Assembly (NCBI GenBank): GCA_028286685.1
Contig: JAQBRA010000004.1
Coordinates: forward strand, 12,898-76,897
Source: Candidatus Adlerbacteria bacterium
Lineage (GTDB): Bacteria; Patescibacteriota; Minisyncoccia; Phycocordibacterales; SBAW01
Direction: 5' to 3'
DNA: 64,000 bases
Position 1 is the first letter of the stretch. Every line of letters begins with the position of its first letter. This document shows positions 4,877 to 49,128 of this stretch, piece after piece. The notes beneath the pieces were generated by a model, which was given only the letters and a program-made list of their open reading frames with translations, was not told the origin of the DNA and did not search any database. A program made the position numbers and the translations under genes.

Positions 4877-5548
4877 TTAAGTTCTAGATTCTCCGGATAG
4901 TCGGGTGATGGGGAGACCGTGCTGCCGGAGCGGCTTATTCAGGCTGTATGTCCCATCTATCTCCATCGTCAATATTCGGTATTCGCAGTTATCGAGATTA
5001 GCGAATGACTCGAACAGCTCTTCATTCCAGTCTAGGATTATTTTGAGCAGTACTCGGAACTCGAAGCCGTGCGAGAGAACAACAATATTGCATCCGGTAT
5101 CCCGTTGTATCTTGAATATCTTCTCCTTAAACTTTTCTAGCCTTTCGATCAGTTGTGCTGCACTCTCGCCGGTTGGAAAAGTGTAGCGCAGTACTCCGAC
5201 TTTATAGCGTTCAGCTTCGATCCCTGGGCGGTTCTCGGCAGTGATATGCCCCCAATCCTGCTTTACAATGAGGGGCTCGATTTCCACATTTGCATTAATG
5301 TGGTCGGGAAGCAGCGGAAGCACTATTTTGAGCGTTTGCACATTCCTGACGCCTGGAGACGTATAGAATCGGGTATCAGGGTTGCCGTTGAGAAGCTGGG
5401 CAAGTAAAGCCCCCAAGTTATGGGCCTGCTCGCGGCCTCTTTCGGTCAGTGGAATCTCAAGATCGCTCAAGACGTCGTAGACCCTATTGTCGACATCTTC
5501 CAACGACTCGGCATGCCGACAGATGATAATCCTAGGATTTCTTTCCAT
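4877..5548 (-). CDS. histidine phosphatase superfamily protein (phosphoglycerate-mutase-like)
   Basis: N-terminal RHAES (RHG-type catalytic His motif), consistent with histidine phosphatase family proteins. Lies in the low-GC islet. Start chosen at MERNPRIII; the ORF extends to 5584. Confidence 0.7.
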   Translation of the reverse strand: MERNPRIIICRHAESLEDVDNRVYDVLSDLEIPLTERGREQAHNLGALLAQLLNGNPDTRFYTSPGVRNVQTLKIVLPLLPDHINANVEIEPLIVKQDWGHITAENRPGIEAERYKVGVLRYTFPTGESAAQLIERLEKFKEKIFKIQRDTGCNIVVLSHGFEFRVLLKIILDWNEELFESFANLDNCEYRILTMEIDGTYSLNKPLRQHGLPITRLSGESRT

Positions 5549-5599
5549 GATGCGACCTTTCAGTGGTTTGGGGAGATATTTCAAGGTACACTCATTCTC

Positions 5600-6136
5600 A
5601 TGAGTGCCGTTTTACTGACCCTGTCTGATAAGGACATCTTCCCAAACACGCCGGATACGACCGGTACTGACTGGAAGGACCGTCCGACCGGCAAGGTTGT
5701 TCTCTTTAATGATAAGAACGAAATTGTCTTAGTAAGCAATAAGATTACTAATCTTTTTCTGCTACCCGGCGGCGGTATAGAGGAAGGCGAGGATATCGTA
5801 GAGGGCACAAAGCGCGAGTGCCGCGAAGAGACTGGTCACGAGATTGAGATCATCCACGAACTCGGTGTGACGGAAGACTACCGAGTCAGAGACAGTCGCC
5901 ATTGCATCAGCTATTGTTTCGCAGCAAAAGCACTTTCGCAGGGCCCGATCGCTCTCACTAAAGACGAAAGCGACATAGGTTTTTTTATGCAGTGGTTCTC
6001 CTTGGAAGACGCGGCGAAGCTGCTCGCCTCCCAAGAAGAGAAAGTTAGGCGGGGCGAAGTTGAGTTCTATAATACCTGCTTCAACATTGTCAGGGACTCA
6101 TTTTTTATCCGCCGCGCCCAGAAGCTACTCGCTTAA
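5600..6136 (+). CDS. NUDIX hydrolase
   Basis: Canonical Nudix box GGGIEEGEDIVEGTKRECREETG (GX5EX7REUXEEXGU). Start moved to the internal ATG at 5600 to avoid overlap with the divergent gene. Confidence 0.8.
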   Translation: MSAVLLTLSDKDIFPNTPDTTGTDWKDRPTGKVVLFNDKNEIVLVSNKITNLFLLPGGGIEEGEDIVEGTKRECREETGHEIEIIHELGVTEDYRVRDSRHCISYCFAAKALSQGPIALTKDESDIGFFMQWFSLEDAAKLLASQEEKVRRGEVEFYNTCFNIVRDSFFIRRAQKLLA

Positions 6137-6138
6137 CA

Positions 6139-6621
6139 CTAGCCTCCCTTGATTTTTCTGATAATCGAGCCCGTTGAGATTTCTTCTTCAGTATAACGGG
6201 GCAGTATTTGTATCTTTGTATCGGGCGAACTGGCTCTTACTTGTGCGAGTCTTTGCTGGAATCGGACCTCGTCCCCGGAGTTTTCCCCAAATACGATACT
6301 GCCCGGCTTCAATAATGAGAGCACGCGCGGACTGTTTGGGCTTACGCCTGCCAAATACACATAGTCGACACATCGCAGGGCTGCCACCATTGCGGCCCTT
6401 TGCCACTGGTTGATTATCGGACGGCTCGAATTCTTGTAGCCTCGTACATAGTTGTCCGAGAGCACCGCGACGACAAGCAGATTCTCGAGCGTAGCGGCAT
6501 ATTCGAGCAAGTGCAAATGGCCGACATGGATAAGATCGAATACCCCTCCCACCAGGCAAAAACTTTTACCGGGCGGCAGTAATTTCCTAAGGGCATGAGC
6601 GCTTCGAGGGACGCTTTTCAT
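6139..6621 (-). CDS. cytidylyltransferase-family nucleotidyltransferase (TagD/RfaE-domain-II-like, HxGH)
   Basis: GGVFDLIHVGHLHLLE, the (H/T)xGH motif of the PF01467 fold. AGGA ribosome-binding site 8 nt before ATG 6621. The longer ORF to 6756 runs into the duplicated mrdA tail and is rejected. Confidence 0.75.
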   Translation of the reverse strand: MKSVPRSAHALRKLLPPGKSFCLVGGVFDLIHVGHLHLLEYAATLENLLVVAVLSDNYVRGYKNSSRPIINQWQRAAMVAALRCVDYVYLAGVSPNSPRVLSLLKPGSIVFGENSGDEVRFQQRLAQVRASSPDTKIQILPRYTEEEISTGSIIRKIKGG

Positions 6622-6722
6622 GGTTGTTCCTTCTATTGTAGAGGTACAGGTTGAGAGGAATCTCAGCTGGGATGCATAATGGTATATTATTTGCATATGG
6701 TCAAATTCGTTTTTAAGAACGA

Positions 6723-6759
6723 CTGGATGCACGAAAATGCGCCCGAATATCTGCAATAA
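6723..6759. repeat. right copy of the 37-bp direct repeat (vestigial mrdA 3' end)
   Basis: ctggatgcacgaaaatgcgcccgaatatctgcaataa, one mismatch to 4770-4806. Confidence 0.9.
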
Positions 6760-6860
6760 GGCCTTTTCCGGCCCTTGTCCCGCTTGACTTGGGGCCCAAT
6801 TCGGCTAAACTAGTCTATCGAAGAAGCAGCTAACCCCCGCAAGGGGAATTTTAAATCCAC

Positions 6861-7319
6861 ATGGAAGAAATGATGTCCCAGGAGAAGTTCGAGGAGCTCA
6901 CGATAGAGCTTGAGAGCCTGCGCACGACCCGCCGCAAGGAGGTAGCCGAGCAGCTTGAGTACGCCCGCAGCCTGGGCGACCTCTCCGAAAACGCCGAGTA
7001 CCAGGAGGCGCGCGAAATGCAGTCCGCAGTAGAGGAGCGCATCGGCAAGCTCGAGAGCATCCTGAAGTCCGCCAAGATCGTCAAGGGCGGCAAGGGTGAC
7101 GGCGTGGGCATGGGCTCGACCGTTACCGTGCAGAAAATCGGCGGCGAAGACAAGCACACCTACACCATCGTCGGCGCCGAGGAAGCCGATATCATCAAGG
7201 GCAAGGTTTCCTACCACTCTCCGCTGGGCGCAGCGCTCCTCAATAAGAAAAAGGCGGACGAGTTCTCCTTCTCGACCCCGCGCGGCGTGCAGAAGTACAA
7301 AATACTTAAAATAGATTAA
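6861..7319 (+). CDS. greA: transcription elongation factor GreA
   Basis: N-terminal coiled-coil (…LESLRTTRRKEVAEQLEYARSLGDLSENAEYQEARE…) and a C-terminal FKBP-like domain. Confidence 0.9.
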   Translation: MEEMMSQEKFEELTIELESLRTTRRKEVAEQLEYARSLGDLSENAEYQEAREMQSAVEERIGKLESILKSAKIVKGGKGDGVGMGSTVTVQKIGGEDKHTYTIVGAEEADIIKGKVSYHSPLGAALLNKKKADEFSFSTPRGVQKYKILKID

Positions 7320-13042: not shown

Positions 13043-14578
13043 ATGTCGTCCCGATTTGTCCTGCGCGTCCGGCTTTTGACCGCGCTTCTGATACTGGTGG
13101 CCCTCGTCATTGTCGGCAAGCTCTACTTTTTGCAGGTGGTGCACGGACAGGACTACGCTCGCCGCGCGGACGCCCAGATTATTGCTACGCACAACCCGCT
13201 GCTTAACCGCGGCGCAATTTACTTTACGGACAAGGACGGCACGCCGATCTTGGCCGCGACCCTGCGCGAGCTGGGCGACGCTTCTACGACTTCCGAAGAC
13301 GGCAATCACCAGCGCTACTATCCGGGCGGTTCCTTGTCGGCCCGGACGCTCGGCTTTGTGGCCTACAACAATGACGACGAGCAGAAGGGACGCTACGGCC
13401 TGGAGCGATATTACGACCCGGTCCTGGGCCGCTCCTCCGATAACCTGTACCGCAACTTCTTCGTCGAGCTCTTCGGCGCGGCGCAGGACGTGCTGAGCGG
13501 CAAAGGCCAGAAAGGCGACCTCGTAACCACTATCGAGCCGTCGGTGCAGGGTGAGCTTGAGCGAACCCTCCTGGAGTACGAGGAGACCTGGCACCCCTCG
13601 CTCTCGGGCGGCATCGTCATGGATCCGCACACGGGCGCCATTGTCGCCATGGCCGTATCGCCGACCTTCGATCTCAACCATTTCAACAAGGAAGACGATC
13701 CGACCATTTACGCCAATCCCATAGCCGAAAACGTCTACGAGCTCGGCTCGATCATGAAGCCGCTTACGGTCGCTGCCGGGCTCGACTCGGGCAGCATTAC
13801 TGAAACTACGACCTATAACGACACCGGCTGCATCACGGTCGACACCAAGAAGATCTGCAACTTCGACGCGGAGGCGCGCGGCGTCATTCCCGTGCAGGAA
13901 ATCCTCAGCCAGTCCCTAAACGTCGGCGCCTCGTTCGTGGCAACCAAGATGGGCCCTGAAATAATGCGCGACTACTTTTTAAACAAGTACAAGTTCAACG
14001 AGGAAACGGGCATCGACCTGCCGGGCGAGGTGCGCGGGCTTACCCAGAATCTCGAGGACGGCCGGGCGGTGGAGTTCGATACGGCGTCCTTCGGCCAGGG
14101 CATTGCCGTAACGCCCATTGAGATGGCGCGGGCGCTGGCGACCCTCGCCAACGGCGGCAAGCTGGTAACGCCGCACTTAGGGGCCGCCATCAAGGAAGAG
14201 AGCGGGATTACCCGCGAGCTGGGCTGGGGCGAGCCCGCACAGGTGCTAAAGCCGCAGACCGCTACTGCCATTAGCCGCATGCTGACCCAGGTGGTCGACA
14301 CGGCGCTCGCCAATGGCGACCTAAAGCTCGAGCGCTACAGCATTGCAGCCAAGACCGGCACGGCCCAGATTGCGGACCCCTCTGGCGGCGGCTACTACAA
14401 GGACCGGTACCTGCACAGCTTCTTCGGGTACTTCCCGAGCTATGACGCCAAGTTCCTGGTATTCCTGTTTGCGGTGGAGCCGCGCGGGGCACCCTTTGCC
14501 TCCCAGACCTGGGCCCCGCCGTTTAAGTCCTTGACCCAGTTTCTGATCAACTACTACAACATCCCGCCGGACCGGTAA
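13043..14578 (+). CDS. ftsI: peptidoglycan D,D-transpeptidase FtsI (PBP3-like)
   Basis: SxxK (GSIMKP), SxN (SQSLNVG) and KTGT (AKTGTAQ) motifs. N-terminal transmembrane anchor. Confidence 0.85.
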   Translation: MSSRFVLRVRLLTALLILVALVIVGKLYFLQVVHGQDYARRADAQIIATHNPLLNRGAIYFTDKDGTPILAATLRELGDASTTSEDGNHQRYYPGGSLSARTLGFVAYNNDDEQKGRYGLERYYDPVLGRSSDNLYRNFFVELFGAAQDVLSGKGQKGDLVTTIEPSVQGELERTLLEYEETWHPSLSGGIVMDPHTGAIVAMAVSPTFDLNHFNKEDDPTIYANPIAENVYELGSIMKPLTVAAGLDSGSITETTTYNDTGCITVDTKKICNFDAEARGVIPVQEILSQSLNVGASFVATKMGPEIMRDYFLNKYKFNEETGIDLPGEVRGLTQNLEDGRAVEFDTASFGQGIAVTPIEMARALATLANGGKLVTPHLGAAIKEESGITRELGWGEPAQVLKPQTATAISRMLTQVVDTALANGDLKLERYSIAAKTGTAQIADPSGGGYYKDRYLHSFFGYFPSYDAKFLVFLFAVEPRGAPFASQTWAPPFKSLTQFLINYYNIPPDR

Positions 14579-14634
14579 CTACCCTGAAAAGCGGGCAGGG
14601 CGGGGTAGGGTAGAATATATAAAACAGAAAAAAC

Positions 14635-15942
14635 ATGCGCACTATTTTCAAATCGATCATCGTTTGGATCCTGCAGATGGAGGCCAAGGCAGTATTGCGC
14701 AAGTATCAGCCAAAGGTGGTTGCTATTACCGGCAGCGTCGGCAAGACCTCGACCAAGGATGCGGTGTACGCCGTGCTTTCTAAGAAATTCCACGTTCGCA
14801 AAAGCGAAAAGAGCTTTAATTCAGAAGTGGGCGTGCCGCTTACGATACTGGGCTTGGGCAACGCCTGGGGCAACCCCTTGCACTGGCTGCAGAACATCAT
14901 CGACGGCCTCTCTCTTATACTGACTACGCACAGCTATCCGGAGTGGCTGGTCTTGGAAGTGGGGGCCGATCGGCCCGGCGACATCAAGTCGCTTTCCTCG
15001 TGGATCAAGGTAGACGTGGCGATTATTACGCGGCTTCCGGAAGTGCCGGTGCATGTGGAGTTCTTTGACTCGGTAGAAGCGGTCATTGAGGAAAAGGCCT
15101 CGCTCATGGACGCGGTGCGTCCTGGAGGCGCGATACTTCTATATGCCGATGACGAGCGCACCAAGAAATTGCAGCAACGCCTGCCGGCGCCCGATGCGCG
15201 CATCGTGCTGTTCGGCTTTAGCGACGAGACCGACGTGTGGGCGAGCAAGTTTGAAGTCGTGCGCGAGGAAGGGAAGGAGTCCTGGCCGATAGGCATGCGG
15301 GCGAATATTTCTGTCGAGGGCGAGTCGGCGCCCGTGCAGATCATCGGTTCTCTGGGCACCCATGCCTTTCTGTCGGCGGTAGCCGCAGCGGCTGCGGGCC
15401 ATGTGCTCGGGGTGAGCCTTCCTGATATTGTCGCGGGGCTCGAGGGTTATGAACCGCCTCCGGGCCGCGTGCGGATATTGCCCGGCATCAAGGATACGCT
15501 GATTCTCGACGATACTTATAACGCCTCGCCGGCGGCGACCATAGCTGCGCTCGATGCGCTCAAGCTGACGGCCCCCAAGGGCCGCGCCATTGCCGTCCTG
15601 GGTGACATGTTGGAACTTGGCCGCGTGTCGGTAGAAGAGCATCGCAAGGTGGGGGCCAAGGCGGCGCAGGTTGCCGATCTTTTGATAGTGGTGGGCGTGC
15701 GGGCGCGCGATATTGCCATGGGGGCACTCGACAATGGCATGAAGGACGAGAATATCTTGCAATTTGAGGACTCTCAAAAGGCCGGTGCCGAGCTCCAGAA
15801 TATGCTTCTGGATCATGACGCCATTTTGGTCAAAGGCTCGCAATCCGTGCGCATGGAGCGCGTGGTCGAGGAAATTATGCAGGAGCCGGAGCGGGCAGGG
15901 GAGCTTTTAGTGAGACAAGACTTAGAGTGGAAAAAGCGCTAG
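14635..15942 (+). CDS. murF: UDP-MurNAc-tripeptide--D-Ala-D-Ala ligase MurF
   Basis: Mur-ligase P-loop VVAITGSVGKTSTKD and C-terminal Mur ligase domain. murE is absent between ftsI and murF. Confidence 0.85.
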   Translation: MRTIFKSIIVWILQMEAKAVLRKYQPKVVAITGSVGKTSTKDAVYAVLSKKFHVRKSEKSFNSEVGVPLTILGLGNAWGNPLHWLQNIIDGLSLILTTHSYPEWLVLEVGADRPGDIKSLSSWIKVDVAIITRLPEVPVHVEFFDSVEAVIEEKASLMDAVRPGGAILLYADDERTKKLQQRLPAPDARIVLFGFSDETDVWASKFEVVREEGKESWPIGMRANISVEGESAPVQIIGSLGTHAFLSAVAAAAAGHVLGVSLPDIVAGLEGYEPPPGRVRILPGIKDTLILDDTYNASPAATIAALDALKLTAPKGRAIAVLGDMLELGRVSVEEHRKVGAKAAQVADLLIVVGVRARDIAMGALDNGMKDENILQFEDSQKAGAELQNMLLDHDAILVKGSQSVRMERVVEEIMQEPERAGELLVRQDLEWKKR

Positions 15943-18632: not shown

Positions 18633-18701
18633 TCGGCTCATCCCGCCGCGATACACAAATCGCGGCGGGATTTTCTTTTATAAAAAAGTTACAATGGGTG
18701 T

Positions 18702-19793
18702 ATGGACCTCATTACTGTACTGGTGGCCGTACTTATACTTTTGGCAGTCGGGATAATCGCCATGCTGTACCGCCTGCAAAAGGGCGCCCAGGCGCCCCAA
18801 GACAGCTCGTCGATGGTGCTTTTGCAGAACCAGCTCGCCGAGCTTACCCGCGCCATGGATAGCAAGTTGGGCGAGGGCACCAAGACCATGTCGGAGTTTA
18901 TGATGACCCAAACCGACCAGGGCCGCACGCTCATGGCCACCATTACCAAGCAGATCGGCGACCAATTGCTTGAGGTGGTCAAGGGAGTGGCTAAGACGGA
19001 AGAGTCCACCAAGCAGATATTTACCATTGCCGAGCAGCTCGGCAACCTCGAAAAGGTGCTCAAGAACCAGAAGCAGCGCGGCAACCTGGGCGAGGCCAGC
19101 CTCGAGCTGGTGATGAGCAATATCCTGCCGCCCGGAGCTTATCAGATGCAGTACGAGTTTCCGGGCGGTGAGACGGTAGACGCCATCATCCGCACCAAGG
19201 AGGGCTTTATCCCGGTTGATGCAAAGTTCCCGCTGGAGAACTATTCGCGCCTGCGCGACGAGAAGGACGATGTGCGCCGGGTGGAGTACGAGGAGGCGTT
19301 TAAGAAAGATCTTAAAAAGCGCATCGATGAAACTTCTAAGTATGTGCGCCCCAAGGACGGCACGCTGCCGTTTGCCTTTATGTACATCCCGGCCGAGGGT
19401 ATCTACTACGACCTTTTGAACGACGGGGTAGGGGCGGTAAATACCCGCAGCCTGCTCGATTATGCGCAGAACGACCGCAAGGTGATAATTGTCTCGCCCA
19501 CGACCTTTGCCGCGTACCTGCAGTCGGTCCTGTACGGCTTTAAGGCTTTTAAGATCGAGGAGCAGGCCAAAGACATCGCCAAGAACGTCGAGGCGCTGGG
19601 CCGGCACATTAATGCCTACCAGGACTACTATAAAAAGCTGGGTGCCTCGCTTAGTACCACGGTCAACCACTTTAACGCCGGCACCAAAGAGCTGGGCAAG
19701 ATCGAGAAGGATGTCCTGCGCATAGACGCTTCGGCCGAGATAGCCATAGACGTGCCCCTGCTCGACAAGCCTATTTTGGAGGGTAAAGATTAA
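18702..19793 (+). CDS. rmuC: DNA recombination protein RmuC
   Basis: N-terminal transmembrane helix, long coiled-coil, C-terminal RmuC nuclease-like region (…LPFAFMYIPAEGIYYDLL…). Confidence 0.8.
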   Translation: MDLITVLVAVLILLAVGIIAMLYRLQKGAQAPQDSSSMVLLQNQLAELTRAMDSKLGEGTKTMSEFMMTQTDQGRTLMATITKQIGDQLLEVVKGVAKTEESTKQIFTIAEQLGNLEKVLKNQKQRGNLGEASLELVMSNILPPGAYQMQYEFPGGETVDAIIRTKEGFIPVDAKFPLENYSRLRDEKDDVRRVEYEEAFKKDLKKRIDETSKYVRPKDGTLPFAFMYIPAEGIYYDLLNDGVGAVNTRSLLDYAQNDRKVIIVSPTTFAAYLQSVLYGFKAFKIEEQAKDIAKNVEALGRHINAYQDYYKKLGASLSTTVNHFNAGTKELGKIEKDVLRIDASAEIAIDVPLLDKPILEGKD

Positions 19794-31669: not shown

Positions 31670-31719
31670 TAGCGGAAGCCTTCATGGTTCTTTTAGAGTG
31701 TAAAAGGTACGATAAGAGT

Positions 31720-32061
31720 ATGAAATTTTTAACGATTGGTTTCCTTGCTCTCGCCGCAGCAGTATTTGTATTTCCAGCAGGGGCAGAAGCGCGCCAGCAG
31801 TTTGGCGGCTTTGGCAGCATCAATATCAATAACAACATACCGTCTTACCAGAGCTATCCCAGCTACCCGGCCTACAACCCGGGCAACTCGTGCGGACGAC
31901 GCTGCGGCTCTTCCTATCAGTACCAGCAGCCAACTTACTACCAGTACCCTTCGTACTCGTACCAGTCTTCTTACTATCAGCCGATGTACTACCAGCCGTA
32001 CTCCTACTCTTATTCGTCTTCCTATTACTCGAGCAGCAACTCAAGCTGGTGGAGCTGGTAA
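31720..32061 (+). CDS. secreted Tyr/Ser/Gln/Pro-rich low-complexity protein
   Basis: Signal peptide MKFLTIGFLALAAAVFVFPAGAEA, then …SYPSYPAYNP…YQYQQPTYYQYPSYSYQSSYYQPMYYQPYSYSYSSSYYSSSNSSWWSW. Confidence 0.5.
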   Translation: MKFLTIGFLALAAAVFVFPAGAEARQQFGGFGSININNNIPSYQSYPSYPAYNPGNSCGRRCGSSYQYQQPTYYQYPSYSYQSSYYQPMYYQPYSYSYSSSYYSSSNSSWWSW

Positions 32062-33695: not shown

Positions 33696-33699
33696 TTTG

Positions 33700-33770
33700 T
33701 CGGGCCGCCGGGAATTGAACCCGGTCTACATGCACCCCATGCATGTGTACTGCCGGTATACTACGGCCCG
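33700..33770 (-). tRNA. tRNA-Pro (anticodon GGG)
   Basis: Hand-folded: acceptor CGGGCCG/CGGCCCG, D-stem GTAT/GTAC, anticodon stem CATGC/GCATG with loop ATGGGGT, T-arm CCGGG-TTCAATT-CCCGG. Confidence 0.8.
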
Positions 33771-33853
33771 TTTCTGTCTTCTAGCTTTACTACCATACCG
33801 TATTTTGGTACGTTTGTGCCAGCAGTTTAGTCCTTTGCAGTGGGAGAGACACA

Positions 33854-34126
33854 ATGGCCAATGGAGACCGGTGCGTCCACTGCGACCTGCAGGAGACACA
33901 GCACGACCATCCTTACTATGCCCCTGAAGGGGTAAGTCCTTGCGGCATGTTCGAAAGTCCCGTTAAGCACGAGAAAGAGTGCCCTATAATCGGGTGCAAT
34001 GGCGATTGCCAGGAGACTTTGGCCGAAAGGGCCTGGAAGGCCCAGGTGGCAGAGAACCGGCTCCGCAATTCCTGGTATATGGACCCCCGAACGGGAAATA
34101 TTGTCTTAGTCGACATGAGCGATTGA
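33854..34126 (+). CDS. hypothetical Cys/His-rich small protein
   Basis: CVHC…C…CPIIGCNGDC pattern. Downstream hairpin plus T-tract at 34186-34215. Confidence 0.45.
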   Translation: MANGDRCVHCDLQETQHDHPYYAPEGVSPCGMFESPVKHEKECPIIGCNGDCQETLAERAWKAQVAENRLRNSWYMDPRTGNIVLVDMSD

Positions 34127-34209
34127 GCAAAATCGCCAATTGAAATCACCACTCTCAAAATACGTTGTCAAATAAGGGGTTCTTGGCACAGCCAAGGCCC
34201 CGTTTATTT

Positions 34210-34241
34210 TTGTCAAGCAAAGTGCTTGCAGCCCTTGACAA
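34210..34241 (+). promoter_or_regulatory. inverted-repeat operator/promoter element upstream of the SLT-like gene
   Basis: TTGTCAAG-N16-CTTGACAA, a perfect 8-bp inverted repeat. The right half is a consensus -35 hexamer. Confidence 0.5.
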
Positions 34242-34353
34242 GAAAATGGTACTATGTTCTTAACCCCAGAGCTTTCGAGCCCTGGGGACTTTTCGTGCCT
34301 GGGTAGTCGCCTAGGCACTGTGCATTACTACATAACCCCACGCAACCTATTAC

Positions 34354-34800
34354 ATGCCTGTTATCGCTGGTTTCGCCATTGCGCTCTCTGCGGCCGTAAG
34401 CAACGGTGCCGCAGTTGCGCCTCAGACCCAACCGACGGTAGCTATAACGCTCCCGGCCGCCATGCCCCAGTCCCAGTCCGTCGAGCAGTACATCCGCGAG
34501 TACTTTTCCGACGAGCCTGTCATGATCGAGATAGCCAAGTGCGAATCGCGCTTCCGCCAGTACGGCCAGGACGGCCACGTGCTGCGCAACGGATCAGGCA
34601 GCTCTGCCGTGGGCGTCTTCCAGGTCATGGGCTCGATCCATGCCAAGTTCGCCGACGACAAGCTCGGCCTGGACATTTACAGCCTCCAGGGCAACGCCGC
34701 ATACGCCCGCTACTTGTACGACCGCGAGGGCACCATGCCGTGGGCCGCTTCGGCCGGCTGCTGGAACAAGTCCGGCAAGCTCCTTGCCCGCGCCCAATAA
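34354..34800 (+). CDS. secreted lytic-transglycosylase (SLT/lysozyme-like) domain protein
   Basis: Signal peptide. AKCES (catalytic Glu-Ser) followed by AVGVFQVM (GLMQ-like) and an AAYARYL motif. Confidence 0.55.
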   Translation: MPVIAGFAIALSAAVSNGAAVAPQTQPTVAITLPAAMPQSQSVEQYIREYFSDEPVMIEIAKCESRFRQYGQDGHVLRNGSGSSAVGVFQVMGSIHAKFADDKLGLDIYSLQGNAAYARYLYDREGTMPWAASAGCWNKSGKLLARAQ

Positions 34801-34835
34801 AACTTAAAATAGTGGGGAAGTGGTCCCCTAGCAAA

Positions 34836-34862
34836 ACCCGCCCAGATTGGGCGGGTTTTGTG
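34836..34862. terminator. bidirectional terminator
   Basis: caaaaCCCGCCCAgattGGGCGGGttttgtg. Confidence 0.65.
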
Positions 34863-34914
34863 TTGGATGAAGAAACAGAATCGCCCGAAAGGTCAGGCGA
34901 CCTGTCGGGCGATA

Positions 34915-35193
34915 TTAGTTTAGATGCCGCTTGCGTTCCTGGCTTTCTCTGAGGAGCGTGCGCATGGAGTCGACTTCTTCGGCCGTTAAGTCCAGCCGTT
35001 CGATATACAGGTCAGCTTGCTCGCGAGTAATTTTGTTCTCGTCAACCCAGCCATCGAGTATGCCCAGCAACGAGCACTTAACGAGCATTTCGGTTTTTTC
35101 TTCAGATAAGGCAAGAAGTCGCCCTTCCCCCACAATGCCTTTGACAGAAAGCTCTCTTATAAGAGCCATTATCTTTGGCGATAGCTGAACCAT
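34915..35193 (-). CDS. hypothetical protein
   Basis: ORF with the terminator downstream. Start chosen at MVQLSPKIMALI. Confidence 0.35.
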   Translation of the reverse strand: MVQLSPKIMALIRELSVKGIVGEGRLLALSEEKTEMLVKCSLLGILDGWVDENKITREQADLYIERLDLTAEEVDSMRTLLRESQERKRHLN

Positions 35194-35480
35194 CCTTGCT
35201 CTCCTCAAGGTAAGTAGAAAGAATCTATAAATCAAAATACCTGAAATATATAGAAAGTCAAGTAGGGAAGTGACTCCCCCAGCTTCCCGAGAAAATATCG
35301 GCAAGACCCCCCTGAGCCTTTAGTATCAACAGTTCTCGGTTAGGGGAGCTGGGCATCTCGGCTAGCCAGAGTAGCCATATAAAGCCCGCTGTAAGCCCGT
35401 ATAAGGCGGCGGGAGAGGCGGATAGATACAAGAGGACCCAAGGCCGGGCCCCCTCCAGCTTCTCCCTATATAAGGGACGC

Positions 35481-35660
35481 AAAAGATATATTGTGCGACA
35501 CATCTTGCACTGATTCCCGATCGAATACGGACCAGTCAAAATGTGAAACTTTTCCACGCCCCCACCCTGCTGGCGGCCCGGCTGAAAAAGTTTTGGATCG
35601 TCGCACGTTCTATCTCAGATAATTATGTTAAAAAACGGTCCGGAGACCCCTCCCCCGAAA
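35481..35660 (+). repeat. copy A of a paralogous ~180-bp non-coding segment (promoter/leader of the HEPN-like gene)
   Basis: Conserved blocks gatatattgtgcgac, tgattcccga, aaaatgtgaaactttt, cc.accc.gc…gcccgg, agttttgg.tc, gacccctcccccg shared with 38241-38425. Confidence 0.75.
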
Positions 35661-36236
35661 ATTGAGATTCAGGAGGGAAGTGCTATTATTTTAGACGTGA
35701 AGCATCAGGACCTGAGGGACAAAATTGATGGCGCTTTTCTCAAGAAAGAATACTTGGAGTCATTCCTCATGCAGAGTGCCTATTTTGAAGCGGTTCTCAA
35801 GTATTTCCTTGAGTTCGTGCATTTCAAGATTATCTATGCTGAAAATGAAAACAAAGAGCATAAGCTAGTAGATATTCTCCAGAATAAGGTCGGCCGCTAT
35901 TCCCTCTTTGAGGTGATAACGATGCTTCGGGATTCCGAAGAGGTTTCCAAATCGGAAGCAGACGAACTGAATAAGTACAGAGAGAAGCGCAATAAAGTTC
36001 TCCATTCTTTGTTCGACGAAATGATGGGCCGAGAAGAGTTCGAAGAAAACCTTAAAAAGGTTGTCGAGTCTGGAAAAGTTATCGCCGAAACTAAGTGGTT
36101 TAAGTCCTTAGTTGAAGGCGTTGAAGATCTCGAAAAGATGTACGAACGTGGAAGATTAAAGAAAGAAAACATGCCGCCTAAGCAAACTGAGCCTCAGAAA
36201 TCCGGAGAGCAGCCTCCTTCCCCTGCTATAAACTAA
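35625..36236 (+). CDS. hypothetical protein with a HEPN-like Rx4H motif
   Basis: AT-rich codon usage. …NKYREKRNKVLHSLFDEMMG… carries the R-x4-H motif; otherwise helical. Confidence 0.5.
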   Translation: MLKNGPETPPPKIEIQEGSAIILDVKHQDLRDKIDGAFLKKEYLESFLMQSAYFEAVLKYFLEFVHFKIIYAENENKEHKLVDILQNKVGRYSLFEVITMLRDSEEVSKSEADELNKYREKRNKVLHSLFDEMMGREEFEENLKKVVESGKVIAETKWFKSLVEGVEDLEKMYERGRLKKENMPPKQTEPQKSGEQPPSPAIN

Positions 36237-36282
36237 TTATGTATACTATCCGTATGTAACCCATAAGCCGTGCGCCACAACC

Positions 36283-36395
36283 ATCACCTTGCGACCAGAG
36301 TCCTGCTACGGGCTCTGATCACTCGCAAGGTGAGTCAGGGTTCCGTAGTGGGACTTTGGTATTAAAAACTAGACGTAGCAGATCACCTTGCGATG
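36283..36395 (+). promoter_or_regulatory. structured leader with a tripartite repeat overlapping the FkbM start codon
   Basis: atcaccttgcga (36283), inverted tcgcaaggtg (36323), and gatcaccttgcgATG (36381) overlapping the start codon. Alternative hairpins are possible. Confidence 0.45.
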
Positions 36396-37109
36396 TTCTC
36401 ACAACTTAAGAGGCGGGTAAGTATTACCCCCTCACCCTTTCCCATACCAGTGGACGGCATGTGGCTCTTCGGGGCCCTGCCCCAGCACATAAGGCACGGC
36501 TACGACGAGAAGAGCACGATTGCCTACTTCCGCCGCCATATTAAGCCTGCCACCGTGTTTATAGACATCGGAGCGAACTACGGCTACTTCACGGTCCTTG
36601 CAGGCAAGCTGGGGGCTACCGTAGAAACCTTCGAACCCGACAAGACTTCTTTCCGCAGAACCTCGTGGAATGTCCGCCTCAATGGCCTTTCCCGTAAAGT
36701 TACCCTGCATAACACCGCAGTGTCAGACACAAGCGGAGTTGCCACGTTCTATATCGACAAGCCCGGATCGGGACTCAATTCCCTGGTTCCAGGGGTTCTC
36801 AAGAATGCCAAGGAAACGCGCGTCACAATCGAGCCGTACGAGGGGTACTACGACTTCTGCAAGATAGACGTGGAGGGCGCGGAGCTTCAGGTCCTCAAAG
36901 GACTGCGCCATAAGGGGATTGTCGTAGCGGAGTTCTGCCCCTCGCGACTGGATGAGATGGGGCTGGGAGCCCGGACCTTTCTCCAGGAAGTGCGCACAAT
37001 GGGGTGGAAAGTCTACAGTATGGACGAAGTGGAGCTGACTGACCAAGAAGCTATCAACCTGGCCGCCCTAGAATATCGGGATACTATCAATCTTTTGCTT
37101 ATTCCCTAA
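36393..37109 (+). CDS. FkbM-family SAM-dependent methyltransferase
   Basis: FIDIGANYGYFTVLAG (FkbM/Methyltransf_21 glycine-rich motif) and …FCKIDVEGAELQVL…. Confidence 0.75.
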   Translation: MFSQLKRRVSITPSPFPIPVDGMWLFGALPQHIRHGYDEKSTIAYFRRHIKPATVFIDIGANYGYFTVLAGKLGATVETFEPDKTSFRRTSWNVRLNGLSRKVTLHNTAVSDTSGVATFYIDKPGSGLNSLVPGVLKNAKETRVTIEPYEGYYDFCKIDVEGAELQVLKGLRHKGIVVAEFCPSRLDEMGLGARTFLQEVRTMGWKVYSMDEVELTDQEAINLAALEYRDTINLLLIP

Positions 37110-37245
37110 GCCCCATGAAGCGCCACTGGTACCGCTCCTCAGCAGAGATACCGCCTGCCCTGCCCCGCTCTCCGGGGAGACGGGGGCCAGGAAAGAAGAC
37201 GATCATCCTGTGGGAGGAAGGGAGAGACGGTCCCCGAGCATACAA

Positions 37246-37272
37246 CAAGGCCCCCTAGTGGGGGCTTTTGTT
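37246..37272. terminator. bidirectional terminator between the FkbM and protease genes
   Basis: aaGGCCCCCtagtGGGGGCttttgtttt. Confidence 0.65.
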
Positions 37273-37839
37273 TTAACGGCGTCCCTTTTTGGATTTTCGA
37301 GGGTTAGCGGCGCGGTTTATTGCCCGTTTGGCCTTCTCCTCTTCAAACCTATTCCAGTTCTCCACCTCTCCAATAAAATCAAATTCATGCACGGACGGTA
37401 TGCGGAACGACGCTACAGTTTTTCCTCCTTTATTAGTCAGAGCAAAATCTCCTTGAGTGAGAATGTCCATTCCGACAATAACTTCAAAATCAGGCTGGTC
37501 GGTTAGGTTGGCTTGGATGACCCTCAGTTTCGGAAACTTTACCCTACCGTCACACATAGAAAGTTCCTCAATAACGAACACCGGGACGTCACTGACCTTT
37601 CCTGCGGCTGTGCTCGACTCAGTAAGTCCCACTGACTGTAAGCTCATTTCCTGCACGAGTTCGGCTGATACGAATGTATGTGTCGCGCCAGTATCGACAA
37701 GTGCCGGGTACACTTTAGAGGTACCGGAGTCGTTCGTTATTTGTACTGGAATGACGATGCGATTGGCCGGACCAGAGAACCGCATTGACCAAGCTTCATG
37801 GCGTTCCATTTTAGTAGATAGCGGTTCTAGGCGAGGCAA
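37273..37839 (-). CDS. retropepsin-like (clan AA) aspartic protease
   Basis: ALVDTGATHTFVS (DTGA catalytic motif) and a later hydrophobic-GMDIL flap-like segment. Confidence 0.65.
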   Translation of the reverse strand: MPRLEPLSTKMERHEAWSMRFSGPANRIVIPVQITNDSGTSKVYPALVDTGATHTFVSAELVQEMSLQSVGLTESSTAAGKVSDVPVFVIEELSMCDGRVKFPKLRVIQANLTDQPDFEVIVGMDILTQGDFALTNKGGKTVASFRIPSVHEFDFIGEVENWNRFEEEKAKRAINRAANPRKSKKGRR

Positions 37840-38059
37840 AAGAGGCCGTGTAGCTGTCTACTCCTGGCGATACCTCCTGTAGAGAAAAATTTCCACGGCC
37901 AAATTTCTCAACTGCAAAATCATACGCTTCTGCAAGTGTATTCTTTACTTCGAGAATCTGATCGTCTTTAAGGATTAGAGTTTTACCATTGTACTTAGCC
38001 ACCAATTCGTCTTGGTGATCCTTGTAAAATTGTAGCGCCAAGGCGTGGTTTGATGCCAT
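37811..38059 (-). CDS. DUF5678-like small protein, partner of the aspartic protease
   Basis: 82 aa. …AKYNGKTLILKDDQILEVKNTLAEAYDFAVEKFGRGNFSLQEV matches the DUF5678-type pattern. Overlaps the protease ORF by 29 nt. Confidence 0.5.
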   Translation of the reverse strand: MASNHALALQFYKDHQDELVAKYNGKTLILKDDQILEVKNTLAEAYDFAVEKFGRGNFSLQEVSPGVDSYTASFASPRTAIY

Positions 38060-38240
38060 GCCCTCACTATACCAAAACGCTTCGATATAGCTAGCACGAA
38101 TCCCCTGTTTTTAGCAGGGTAAAAAGTCCTTTAATATGGCTTCATTTTCCACCTCGCCCATAAGAGTATTGCTCCCCTCCCAAGAGGTATTTATTCAAAT
38201 AGCCGAGACGTACCTGCAGCATAGCCACTCCAGCGTTCGC

Positions 38241-38425
38241 AAAACGATATATTGTGCGACGTATATGCTATTGATTCCCGACCGGGTTGAGTCTGCTTAA
38301 AATGTGAAACTTTTAGAGTCCCTACCCCGCCGCCGCGCCCCGGAAGATAGTTTTGGGTCCGGTCTCAATTCCCTCCGCTCTTTTTATAAATTTTCTGCAA
38401 AATTTCTCCAAAAGACCCCTCCCCC
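38241..38425 (+). repeat. copy B of the paralogous non-coding segment, followed by a terminator
   Basis: ~70% identity to copy A across ~180 bp, including the homologue of the HEPN gene's 5' end but no ATG. Ends at terminator 38459-38485. Confidence 0.75.
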
Positions 38426-38458
38426 GTTTTTTCAAAATTTGGGTAGGGGACCTAATAA

Positions 38459-38485
38459 AAAAGCCGCGGCATGCCGCGGCTTTTG
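38459..38485. terminator. bidirectional terminator
   Basis: aaaaaaGCCGCGGCatGCCGCGGCttttgac. Confidence 0.7.
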
Positions 38486-38503
38486 ACTTTTTCGCCGAGG
38501 CTA

Positions 38504-38764
38504 TTAATTGAGCCTCTTTGGTTTAACGTCTGGATTGTCTTCCAAAACCTTTTCTTGCAGGTAGCCGGCGGGTACTATGCTGATCGATACAATCGATATC
38601 TTGCGCTTCTTGTATCGGTCGAGAAATTCTTCCGCTTCGCGCCATGCTGCTTTGGGGTCCGGATAGGCAGTTCCGACTTTTTTCATCTGCAGCAGCAAGT
38701 TGTCCTCGCTATATGTTTCAGTGAGAATTCCTTGCCACATCCCTAGATTTTCTGCGTCAGCCAC
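38504..38764 (-). CDS. hypothetical protein
   Basis: 86-aa ORF immediately upstream of the terminator. Confidence 0.35.
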   Translation of the reverse strand: MADAENLGMWQGILTETYSEDNLLLQMKKVGTAYPDPKAAWREAEEFLDRYKKRKISIVSISIVPAGYLQEKVLEDNPDVKPKRLN

Positions 38765-38837
38765 GAGACGCTCCCTTTGTTGGTTTGGTTATCTGTAAAT
38801 TACATTAACATAACAATACAAGTATGTCCAGAGTGCT

Positions 38838-39503
38838 ATGATGAAGAGGATGAGCTACGCAGACAAGATAGGCGCCCTCCTCTCCCCTGCTGAGCGGGCG
38901 GTTTTTATAAAGTTGAACACGCCACAGAAGGTGCAGGACTACTTGGACGCCATGCCACTTAACTTTGAGGTACGCGGCGAAGAAGGCATATACAGCCCAC
39001 GAGAGGTATTAAAGAAAAAGAAGGCCCAATGCATGGAAGGGGCGCTTTTAGCAGTAGCAGCGCTCGAGTACAACGGCCAGCGGGCCTACTTGCTTGATTT
39101 GCGCACGCCCGAGTACGATTACGATCATGTGGTCGCTTTGTTTAAGGTAGGCGGCCGGTGGGGCGCCATAAGCAAAACAAACCACCCGGTGCTGCGGTGG
39201 CGCGACCCGGTGTACACAAGCGTGCGCGAGCTCGCAGTCTCATACTTTCACGAGTACTTCCTTTTTAGCGGCGAGAAGACTCTTAAGTCGCACTCTGACG
39301 CATTCTCCCTGCACCCCTACCCACTTGAGCGGTGGCTCACTACAGAAGATGACTTGGATTGGCTGGCCACCGAGCTTGATAAAGCAAAGCACTTCCCTAT
39401 TGCATCACCCAAGGCGATGAAGTCGCTGCGTCGTGCGTCCAAGATCGAGCGCAAAGCGACCGAGATGGTCGAGTGGAAGGATCCGTCAAAAAAGAAAGCT
39501 TAA
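38838..39503 (+). CDS. hypothetical protein, possible transglutaminase-like/papain-fold Cys-His-Asp peptidase
   Basis: CMEGALLAVAALEYNG … DHVVALF … weak Cys/His/Asp arrangement. Confidence 0.4.
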   Translation: MMKRMSYADKIGALLSPAERAVFIKLNTPQKVQDYLDAMPLNFEVRGEEGIYSPREVLKKKKAQCMEGALLAVAALEYNGQRAYLLDLRTPEYDYDHVVALFKVGGRWGAISKTNHPVLRWRDPVYTSVRELAVSYFHEYFLFSGEKTLKSHSDAFSLHPYPLERWLTTEDDLDWLATELDKAKHFPIASPKAMKSLRRASKIERKATEMVEWKDPSKKKA

Positions 39504-47597: not shown

Positions 47598-48014
47598 ATG
47601 AGCGCTTATGATGGATACACAGGGCGCCTTCTTGAGGACAAGGTCCTCGGCAGGTGCACTTCCAAGCATCGCGGCTATATGCGATGGAGCGAAGCGGCTG
47701 CAGAGGTTCGCAAGAGCCAGCCAGCAGCGAAGGCGGCAGTAGCCGCAAGCCTCGAGCAGGAACTTCGCCGCAAGCTTCCGGGTGTCGATGTGCGGTTTTA
47801 TACCGCGGTCGGCTCTACGCTCGACCTGATGCACAGCGTCGACGGATTCTTCGTGTTTGAGGGCGTAGTCACGGTGACTATCGACCTGACGATGAATCCG
47901 AACAAGGACGCCTGCAAGGCGGACGTTCTCGTCACTGCGGACGACCTGGAGTCTCTTTCGATCGTCGCGCATCGCGTGGCGCGCGAGCTGCAAACCAAAT
48001 TGGAGAGAATGTAG
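47598..48014 (+). CDS. hypothetical protein
   Basis: 138-aa ORF downstream of a consensus promoter. Confidence 0.45.
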   Translation: MSAYDGYTGRLLEDKVLGRCTSKHRGYMRWSEAAAEVRKSQPAAKAAVAASLEQELRRKLPGVDVRFYTAVGSTLDLMHSVDGFFVFEGVVTVTIDLTMNPNKDACKADVLVTADDLESLSIVAHRVARELQTKLERM

Positions 48015-48015
48015 T

Positions 48016-48261
48016 ATGTGTGCGAAGCCTTCTCACCATTCGCGTAGTTATTTCTTTGAGTGCTCCAGCTGCGGGACTTATCCCGTTGACGAAAGCTCAC
48101 TGAGAAATTTCATTACGCGCAAGCTGAAGCAAAGCCTGGCCGACGAGCTCGCTCAAGGCGCTGCGGGAGCCAAGCTTAAGTTTAAGAATGGCTGCCCCAG
48201 ATGTAAGCCGGACGCGACTCACGAAACTGAGCTGGTAACGCTCAAGCGACAAACGCACTAA
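48016..48261 (+). CDS. hypothetical zinc-ribbon protein
   Basis: CSSCG…CPRC pairs. 1-nt gap to the previous gene. Terminator 48264-48320 follows. Confidence 0.4.
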   Translation: MCAKPSHHSRSYFFECSSCGTYPVDESSLRNFITRKLKQSLADELAQGAAGAKLKFKNGCPRCKPDATHETELVTLKRQTH

Positions 48262-48435
48262 CCAACCCACCGAAGCTGCAGAAATCCACCGGATTCTCTG
48301 TAGTTCGGTGGGTTTTCTTTTTTATACCAGTATTTAAAATATAAGTTGACAATAAGTTTCAATAGGTGTGTAGTAGTAAAAGATAGATAAGTTCCAATAT
48401 AAGTCCGGTGCCACAAAATAAATCGGAGGCAATCT

Positions 48436-49128
48436 ATGCGCATTCTTTTGATCGAAGACCACCCTCCCACTGCTCAGTCGATGATAGTTATGCTTGAGTC
48501 CGAGGGCTGTGTGGTTGATACGACAGCTCGCGGGCAAGACGGCATGGATCTCGCTAAGCTCTACGATTACGACATCATTCTGCTGGATATAGGCCTGCCG
48601 GACATGTCCGGCTTCGAAGTTATTCGGTTGCTGCGAATTTCCAAGATTAAGACGCCGATCATGGTCGTGTCCGGCCTCGCCGGCACGCACGACAAGGTTA
48701 AAGGTCTCATCTTCGGCGCCGACGACTATATAACCAAGCCCTTCCACAAGGACGAGCTGGTCGCCCGTATCCATGCTATCGTGCGGCGCTCCAGGGGCCA
48801 CGCGCAATCGACTATCCAGATTGGCGACCTGGTAATCAATCTCGACGCCAAAACGGTCAAGGTAAATGACCGGCAGGTGCACCTGAGCAAGAAGGAATAC
48901 CGCACGCTAGAACTGCTTTCTCTTAGGAGAGGCATAACAATCACCAAGGAGATGTTCCTAACCCATCTCTATGGTGGGATGGACGAGCCTGAAGACTTGA
49001 TCATTAATAGGTTCATCTGCAATCTTCGCAAGAAGCTGGCTCATGCCTCTGACGGCAAAAGCTATATCGAAACCGTCTGGGGTAGAGGCTATAAGATACC
49101 CGAACTAGACGCTGAAGCTACAGCCTGA
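48436..49128 (+). CDS. ctrA: OmpR-family response regulator with strong similarity to CtrA
   Basis: [15 protein letters not shown]…[17 protein letters not shown]…KTPIMVVSG…[33 protein letters not shown]…[17 protein letters not shown]…ETVWGRGY aligns closely from memory to Caulobacter CtrA across the receiver and winged-helix domains. Lower local GC and an AT-rich upstream region. Confidence 0.8.

Follow-up and report, generated by a model that had tools for sequence, protein, structure and literature searches.

The DNA analysed here is a 64-kb stretch (the window) of a Candidatus Adlerbacteria genome of ~57% GC. Its subject is a low-GC block that lies between a gene for an SLT-like secreted protein and a gene for a transglutaminase-like protein. 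The block contains four genes, encoding a HEPN-domain protein, an FkbM-family methyltransferase, a retropepsin-like protease and a DUF5678-like protein, and is bracketed by two copies of a 28-bp palindromic site that resembles dif. An earlier note on this DNA had proposed that the wider segment, starting at a tRNA-Pro gene, is a horizontally acquired defence or conflict island; all the open reading frames (ORFs) that it listed exist in the window.

The insert and its boundaries

We scanned one genome per species with the neighbouring exonuclease and obtained 80 related loci (58-88% identity), all of Paceibacteria, Adlerbacteria or Kaiserbacteria type. Presence and absence of homologues across these loci was recorded in a tblastn matrix, sites were searched in 10-20 kb of each locus, and proteins were scanned against four libraries, Pfam, NCBIfam, PHROG and PADLOC. 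The closest relative, L003, and a close relative, L004, were used for flank orthology (blastn), and a further relative found later, L089, lies outside the 80-locus set. The tblastn matches reveal a conserved gene order, in which L9, L27, a hypothetical gene, DUF454, the exonuclease, tRNA-Pro and the SLT-like gene are followed, after variable DNA, by the transglutaminase-like gene, an ABC permease, an ABC ATPase, DUF378, an M23 peptidase, GltX and MurG. This conserved frame encloses a hypervariable hot spot, the stretch from the SLT-like gene to the transglutaminase-like gene, whose DNA differs in nearly every genome. Specifically, the exonuclease-to-transglutaminase interval spans 0.64-7.5 kb in 31 relatives, and the ORFs within it are almost all singletons.

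No homologue of the window's Cys-rich, hyp92, HEPN-like, FkbM, retropepsin or DUF5678-like ORFs is present in any of the 80 loci (tblastn), and the absence of the core genes from the relatives identifies horizontally acquired accessory DNA, as the earlier note had supposed. That note had also counted the SLT-like and transglutaminase-like genes among the island genes; both are in fact backbone genes, syntenic in relatives and native in GC content at third codon positions (GC3; 0.80 and 0.68, respectively). Because these two genes are native in composition and syntenic, the accessory part is narrower, at ~34.9-38.8 kb, and within it the demonstrable insert is confined to 35,500-38,237.

In the compositional analysis (GC content and tetranucleotides, 2-kb windows), 35-39 kb is the most atypical part of the 64 kb, with a tetranucleotide-distance z of 3.0-3.3 and a GC z of -2.1 to -2.6. 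The GC content of the insert is 49.3%, compared with a background of 57% (window mean 56.8%), and GC3 is 0.42-0.50 in the HEPN, retropepsin and DUF5678 genes, compared with 0.68-0.80 in backbone genes. The fall in GC content from 63% to ~45% described earlier is real, but its true values are ~57% outside and 49-50% in the core, and only 400-nt windows reach 41-44%. Elsewhere in the window there are two more kilobase-scale low-GC patches (49-51%), at 5001-7000 and 48001-49000.

Two paralogous non-coding repeats, at 35478-35660 and 38238-38430, had been recognised before and prove to be real (72-74% identical, blastn E 2e-10); each begins with the conserved dif-like site. Copy A of the core (35474-35501, plus strand) reads GGGACGCAAAA-GATATA-TTGTGCGACAC and carries the left flank of the relatives, with 35465-35499 being 97% identical to L003 over 35 nt and 35450-35501 being 85% identical to L004 over 53 nt. 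Copy B (38235-38262, plus strand) reads GTTCGCAAAAC-GATATA-TTGTGCGACGT; its core matches L003 and L004 but its left flank does not, and its right arm, at 38413-38453, is 90% identical to the right arms of both relatives (39-41 nt). The copies are in direct orientation with the host flanks split between the two, copy A behaving as attL at the chromosomal left flank and copy B as attR at the chromosomal right flank. These are the only full copies of the site in the 64 kb. When up to three mismatches are allowed, the window contains five matches, compared with 0.79 expected, and none of 100 shuffles reached five.

Because copy A has the relatives' left flank and copy B their right flank, we read the block as an insertion of 2,738 bp at the core, and on this flank orthology it is very probably an insertion bounded by duplicated site copies. 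The reconstructed ancestral arrangement is left flank, core and right arm. The similarity of the two copies runs ~190 nt to the right of the core; the right arm of copy A (35500-35690, plus strand), which would have come with the insert, is 72-74% identical to 38261-38455. None of the four insert genes matches an integrase or transposase in any of the four libraries, and the two recombination-type sites that bracket the insert offer a reason for the missing integrase. The proteins of the insert are carried by a single contig only.

The 28-bp site in relatives and around prophages

The consensus of the site, ACGTCGCAAAA-G(A/G)TATA-TTGTGCGACGT, was derived from 58 sites in 57 loci; in short form, its centre is given as GATATA. 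The site is composed of two 11-bp arms in dyad symmetry and a 6-bp AT-rich centre; the symmetry holds at 12 of 14 positions, and the 58 sites do not vary at most of the central ones. The dif site has the same 28-bp 11-6-11 layout, lies at the terminus and is exploited by elements without an integrase, the integrative mobile elements exploiting Xer (IMEX), while strongly symmetric sites are typical of single-recombinase Xer systems (PMC5357621, PMC9765430). In our literature search, no description of a dif site for Patescibacteria was found.

The site occurs once in most related loci (one full copy per locus, 57 loci) and lies where plus-strand genes meet minus-strand genes. AT skew falls across it in 42 of 44 loci (p 2e-10) and GC skew in 31 of 44 (p 5e-4). 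Coding bases in the window are 68% plus-strand to the left of the sites and 28% to the right. Furthermore, six loci have clusters of half-site copies that keep one arm and the centre, at a distance of 300-600 nt from the main site, and four more have left-arm copies 0.6-5 kb from it. Such half sites would look like decayed hybrid att sites, the remnants of past events.

The same site is also found around filamentous prophages. An exact 19-mer of the site is present on 32 IMG/VR contigs, compared with a rough chance estimate of about one. On the IMG/VR contigs L119 (2200-7631) and L124 (2067-7517), two direct site copies 5.4 kb apart enclose genes for a Zot-like assembly ATPase, a rolling-circle Rep (REP_ORF2-G2P) and a DUF2726 protein, flanked by MurG and DUF3048, and no integrase is found among the ORFs of at least 80 aa between the site copies. 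Exact look-ups place the host in TM7, as Candidatus Saccharimonas or Nanogingivalis (oral Saccharibacteria). In L119, ~400 nt to the right of each site are ~75% alike and hence also duplicated. The TM7 inovirus proteins have no BLAST match in the related loci. In the close relative L009, the full site and a left-arm half site enclose a Zot-family gene and inovirus-like small ORFs, a weaker case for same-site insertion than the oral Saccharibacteria prophages. There are earlier reports of inoviruses in the Candidate Phyla Radiation and of TM7 prophages (PMC6813254, PMC7739484), and the literature searched on them does not describe the attachment site as dif. By analogy, integrase-less filamentous prophages between two site copies are the textbook IMEX situation.

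Because the strand switch, the half-site remnants, the prophages at the same site and the L009 case all fit, we read the site as dif-like. On these comparisons, it is probably a Xer/dif-type site that is used as IMEX elements use dif.

Cargo genes and the surrounding interval

The first gene of the insert (35697-36236, plus strand) encodes a minimal stand-alone HEPN-domain protein of 179 aa, a predicted RNase. The deposited ORF has 203 aa; its first 24 codons (35625-35696) fall within the duplicated right arm and are missing from homologues. Because the homologues begin at residue 25 of this ORF, translation probably starts at the GTG at 35697. A word-indexed homologue search found almost nothing, and an exhaustive representative search yielded a family of 69 clusters at 50% identity. 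Among 40 aligned family members, R98 of the RNxxxH motif never varies and conservation of N99 and H103 is 90% or higher, in agreement with the R-x4-6-H pattern of HEPN proteins, and the window protein has the HEPN helical-bundle fold. Family members match Pfam DUF4145, HepT-like and HEPN_RiboL-PSP, and the family has no Pfam model of its own. The family alignment and the structure thereby support the label 'HEPN-like' chosen in the earlier note. The gene has neither an adjacent MNT nucleotidyltransferase, its neighbours being the non-coding arm and the FkbM gene, nor a CARF partner, and so differs from a HEPN-MNT toxin-antitoxin system; PADLOC returns a weak CARF_HEPN match in the region. No homologues were found on viral contigs. 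In two other Paceibacteria contigs, homologues lie beside the same core, 207 nt to its right in L096, which is the core-to-HEPN spacing of the window, and within 1 kb in L094, where the homologue is preceded by an overlapping 125-aa ORF that the window lacks.

The gene for an FkbM-family S-adenosylmethionine-dependent methyltransferase (36393-37109, plus strand) comes after the HEPN gene, in the same orientation, and runs up to a bidirectional terminator hairpin (37247-37268; 9-bp stem, six GC pairs, T runs on both strands) that is common to the two convergent units. The assignment is based on matches to Pfam Methyltransf_21 (E 3e-9; 37.6 bits, cutoff 22.7), TIGR01444 (E 2e-19; 70.4 bits, cutoff 37.7) and phrog_8156 (E 3e-23), the methyltransferase being the only protein of the region with a PHROGs match. 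The hairpin is one of two strong bidirectional terminators, the other lying at 38459-38484. The several bidirectional terminators noticed earlier are borne out by an enrichment of terminator-like hairpins of ~2.5-fold (19, compared with 7.6 +/- 3.2 in shuffles).

On the opposite strand, a retropepsin-like (clan AA) aspartic protease (37273-37785, minus strand) with an LVDTGATH (DTGA) motif and a basic C-terminal tail matches Asp_protease_2 (E 8e-10; 39.7 bits, cutoff 24.3), PDC-M08B (E 2e-6) and, below its cutoff, TIGR03698 (E 1e-4). The DTGA motif is present in all 120 listed homologues. Of these homologues (P0007-P0118), 47 end in a SEC-C-type zinc motif, CPCGSGKKYKxCCG (loose pattern); in the window protein and the proteins closest to it, the tail is instead rich in Lys and Arg. 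Directly upstream of the protease gene lies the gene for the 82-aa DUF5678-like protein (37811-38059, minus strand; Pfam E 1e-5). A DUF5678-like homologue of 81-100 aa occupies this upstream position in five of five contexts, from Patescibacteria to 2-4-Mb genomes, and such a partner is also found in 7 of 11 viral contigs that carry the protease. Copies of the pair in wholly unlike neighbourhoods share 62-67% identity with it; in L087 it adjoins nuclease-type genes, and in L089 the pair alone occupies the same hot-spot interval, in opposite orientation and again with low GC content. Judging from these contexts, the DUF5678-like and retropepsin genes are a self-contained, widely mobile two-gene module.

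The earlier proposal of a defence or conflict island stands as regards the acquired core; defence is not demonstrated, as PADLOC found no complete known system. We rejected a known defence system, as PADLOC gave only partial or weak matches: the candidate system PDC-M08 needs both components, A and B, of which only B was matched (E 2e-6), and the small partner has no PADLOC match at E 0.1. Family and context make it an even call whether the cargo serves conflict functions. Such a role would most likely consist of toxin-like or anti-phage RNA cleavage by the HEPN protein and of proteolysis checked by the small partner in the case of the pair. Because no publication on DUF5678 or PDC-M08 was found in the literature search, we infer the toxin-like or defence role from family and context.

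To the left of the accessory part, the tRNA-Pro(GGG) gene at the start of the segment (33699-33770, minus strand) was confirmed by ARAGORN and Rfam and is a conserved neighbour of the exonuclease gene in most relatives. Between close relatives, this gene of ~75-90 nt is inverted on its own, keeping its place beside the exonuclease: window 33697-33771 is 97% identical to L004 10607-10681 in reverse, the gene is also reversed in L075 (10623-10707), and L006 and L008 have the same orientation as the window. We rejected a classical tRNA island, in agreement with the earlier note, as there is no integrase, no fragment of the tRNA is repeated, and between the tRNA and the insert there is a backbone gene. 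The sole tRNA-related repeat is a 15-nt inverted match at chance level, and the tRNA 3' end has no direct repeat at the far border.

The tRNA gene is followed by a putative coding, lineage-specific ORF of 90 aa with six Cys residues (33854-34126, plus strand; GC3 0.66, near native), which has no match in Pfam, NCBIfam, PHROG or PADLOC. The SLT-like secreted protein (34354-34800, plus strand) has tblastn matches at the syntenic position in 47 relatives, and its gene has an upstream palindrome, TTGTCAAG-N17-CTTGACAA (34211-34243; 34211-34800 together with the gene), inside which lies a third TTGAC box. The palindrome is kept upstream of the SLT-like gene in 11 of the 47 relatives (strict pattern) and is probably a conserved operator and promoter of this backbone gene. 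Within the variable region, the helical 92-aa orphan hyp92 (34915-35193, minus strand; GC3 0.55), left of copy A, is cargo that is also called in a Logan contig and has no family match. The orphan hyp86 (38504-38764, minus strand; GC3 0.53), between the right arm and the transglutaminase-like gene, has its sole homologue at the same place in L003 (42% identical). The transglutaminase-like (DUF553) gene (38838-39503, plus strand; Pfam E 6e-6) is syntenic in ~35 relatives and is the last plus-strand gene before the strand switch. Of the family names first given to these proteins, FkbM, retropepsin-like, DUF5678 and transglutaminase-like hold, and SLT-like is weak (Pfam SLT E 0.043). Farther left, upstream of L27, a small secreted protein (31684-32061) is extremely rich in Tyr, Ser and Gln, with repeats of the QPxYYQ and SYSYSSS types.

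In the relatives, the Pfam census of the hot spot gave DoxX in 10 loci and an AIR-synthase-like domain in four, along with single cases of a Xer-like integrase, UmuDC, SIR2, Fic, Zot, NUDIX and another retropepsin. The Kaiserbacteria-type hot spot of L040 (10919-14545) contains a Xer-like tyrosine recombinase (SAM_1 and Phage_integrase, 318 aa) directly after the exonuclease, together with a UmuC-type polymerase, and a dif-like motif was not detected in the L040 locus. In L017, this hot spot encodes a SIR2_2-domain protein (E 8e-7; 14548-15786).

Origin of the insert and relation to known systems

We favour the reading that the low-GC core is DNA inserted at the conserved 28-bp site and that the region is a recombination hot spot centred there. 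The site would be the dif site of the lineage or another host tyrosine-recombinase site, and circular DNA carrying a mimic of the site and ~190 nt of right arm would have been integrated by a host Xer-type recombinase, the entry route being that of IMEX elements and dif modules. The cargo is arranged in two convergent units, HEPN then FkbM, and DUF5678-like then retropepsin.

Several observations weigh against this reading. The skew switch at the site is confounded with the switch in gene strand, and the cumulative purine skew of the window has a broad maximum at 28-49 kb instead of a sharp one at the site. A regex scan of the 64 kb found no Xer or other tyrosine recombinase; the sole candidate, 18678-19670 (minus strand), was rejected, having no Pfam match and an overlapping plus-strand ORF that is RmuC. 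Because copy B has a 1-nt insertion in its left arm and copy A one mismatch, at least one of the sites may be inactive. In addition, the insert contains no phage or plasmid genes, the FkbM gene is near-native in composition (GC 55%, GC3 0.67), and the simple IMEX model does not explain the ~190-nt arm that is duplicated beyond the core. With regard to the cargo, PADLOC calls no system for the insert, and its conflict role is putative.

A wider reading gives the arm a function. Patescibacteria might share a dif-type unit, composed of the 28-bp core and a right arm of ~200-400 nt, that serves as a general platform for gene capture and expression, a tentative proposal that we think rather less likely to be right than wrong. 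A host recombinase would then integrate integrase-less circles that mimic core and arm, such as filamentous phages and HEPN or DUF5678-retropepsin modules, and the arm would supply accessory recombination sequences or a promoter and leader for the gene that lands behind it.

The arm is conserved far beyond the window. At least 17 loci (among them L072-L076, L079, L066, L003, L004, L012, L015 and L008) have a near-invariant box, ACCmCTyCCCyG, 155-182 nt rightward of the core, after which come a G-rich partner and a variable GC hairpin; the arm also has CTTCCCT-type boxes. In the window, the box is AGACCCCTCCCCCG in the right arm of copy A (35644-35657), 164 nt from the core as in other loci, and lies at the conserved distance, at 38413-38426, in the chromosomal right arm (38261-38490, plus strand), which includes the terminator at 38459-38484. 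The box is in coding sequence in some genomes and non-coding in others, and the hairpin around it pairs in different registers among lineages. The arm could be an accessory recombination sequence (as in cer and psi), a promoter and leader, or a small RNA.

The last possibilities lead to an unlikely but substantial alternative, in which core and arm form a ~200-nt small RNA gene or promoter-leader, the palindrome is its 5' stem-loop or an operator, and the island entered through its own, later lost integrase, as happens at tRNA and tmRNA genes. The fixed distances of the boxes would fit such a gene, as would the GC hairpin and T run with which the arm often ends, the conservation of the arm in distant genomes despite stops in all frames, and the following gene (transglutaminase-like or HEPN), which starts just past core or arm. 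Six outer pairs of the palindrome also show compensatory changes, from GTCGCA/TGCGAC to TTCGCA/TGCGAA, with TGCGTA/TGCGCA in L067. However, no Rfam family reaches gathering thresholds in the window repeats or in eight loci, RNAalifold gives no consensus structure over the arm, and no promoter-like -35/-10 pair is apparent around the core. Moreover, an 11-6-11 dyad with an AT-rich centre is the core layout of tyrosine recombinases, the half-site remnants, like hybrid att sites, retain the centre with one of the arms, and the filamentous prophages occupy the same site with no integrase. This alternative keeps its weight mainly because the arm may be an accessory sequence, a promoter-leader or a small RNA.

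It is improbable that the core serves the transglutaminase-like gene as a transcription-factor operator, with the variable DNA brought in by homologous recombination between flanking genes and by illegitimate insertions, and with the two copies arising from local promoter duplication. The core does lie 24-49 nt upstream of the start of this gene in 17 relatives (3 nt in one ORF call), and the boxes there fall within its first ~50 codons. A profile of promoter and 5' coding sequence also matches both window copies collinearly (core E 3e-7 and 3e-6; second block E 0.15 and 0.79). Nevertheless, the site is equally conserved in ~25 loci where no transglutaminase-like gene adjoins it and in Saccharibacteria, it flanks prophages, and the split flank orthology is explained by insertion at the core, not by tandem duplication. 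The related view that the repeats are a decayed promoter and 5' end of the transglutaminase-like gene was rejected, as the second block reaches only E 0.15-0.79 and the arm is non-coding but conserved in distant genomes.

Least of all do we believe that no transfer took place and that the low-GC stretch is native, fast-evolving terminus DNA with orphan genes, weak selection and AT-biased mutation. In favour of this, DNA near the terminus is often variable and richer in AT, and in the relatives most ORFs of the hot spot are orphans with no family match, the hot-spot intervals being just 0-7 GC points below their loci. Against it, the block is sharply bounded by duplicated sites, and clear homologues of HEPN, FkbM and the retropepsin pair exist in unrelated genomes or viral contigs but not in the 80 related loci; the pair shares 62-67% identity with copies in quite other surroundings and recurs alone in L089. 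We also rejected an integron cassette array, since the window contains no integrase and the repeats consist of one site and its arm, not of attC-like imperfect palindromes of varied sequence.

The Patescibacteria (Candidate Phyla Radiation) are organisms with very small genomes in which few mobile elements can be recognised, and hardly any genetics is available for them. If the reading of insertion at the 28-bp site is true, a conserved site for recombination would be a landmark for the replication terminus in this phylum, would explain where strain-specific genes and prophages enter, and would provide a natural docking site for DNA in cultivable Saccharibacteria. In addition, two small families are defined here, that of the minimal HEPN protein and that of the DUF5678-like and retropepsin pair; both are carried by such insertions, and each is, by analogy, a candidate for toxin-like or anti-phage functions.

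Among known systems, the HEPN RNases HepT, Csm6/Csx1 and the HEPN domain of AbiA differ from the window family, which is stand-alone, 150-180 aa long, and has no MNT and no CARF. PADLOC PDC-M08 and the clan AA proteases of AF_0612 type (TIGR03698) resemble the pair in the matching retropepsin and in a two-gene cassette with a small upstream gene, but the small partner in the window matches no PADLOC model. Islands linked to tRNA genes share the variable accessory DNA near a tRNA gene; here, however, the duplicated target is the palindromic site and not the tRNA, and a conserved backbone gene lies between the tRNA and the insert.

The dif modules of Acinetobacter include toxin-antitoxin pairs and lie mostly on plasmids, between inversely oriented sites. 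They resemble the insert in their small cargo, often of one or two genes, in their Xer-type sites and in the lack of a recombinase of their own, and they move between replicons (PMC7399989, PMC12907356); the window insert differs in lying between two direct copies at one chromosomal site. In Legionella, the element LME-1, which carries a site mimic, revealed a single-recombinase dif system, XerL/dif, with strong dyad symmetry near the terminus, a genetically tested system, whereas that of the window is comparative only (PMC9765430); the argument made for the window follows the one by which that dif was recognised. The IMEX elements (CTXphi, VGJphi and TLCphi of Vibrio and the gonococcal genetic island) likewise lack their own integrase and use a 28-bp 11-6-11 site in a terminus-like strand-switch zone (PMC5357621). 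As with these elements, two direct dif-like copies, one of them degenerate, flank the DNA, and filamentous prophages of the same phylum use the site. The insert differs from them in its 2.7-kb size, in having no phage or conjugation genes and in the duplication of ~190 nt beside the core, compared with a known attP of ~28 bp; the status of host Xer and dif is putative here, resting on sequence comparison. IMEX elements and Acinetobacter dif modules are the closest known kinds, from which the insert differs in its phylum, its lack of phage or plasmid genes, its direct orientation at a chromosomal site and its co-duplicated arm.

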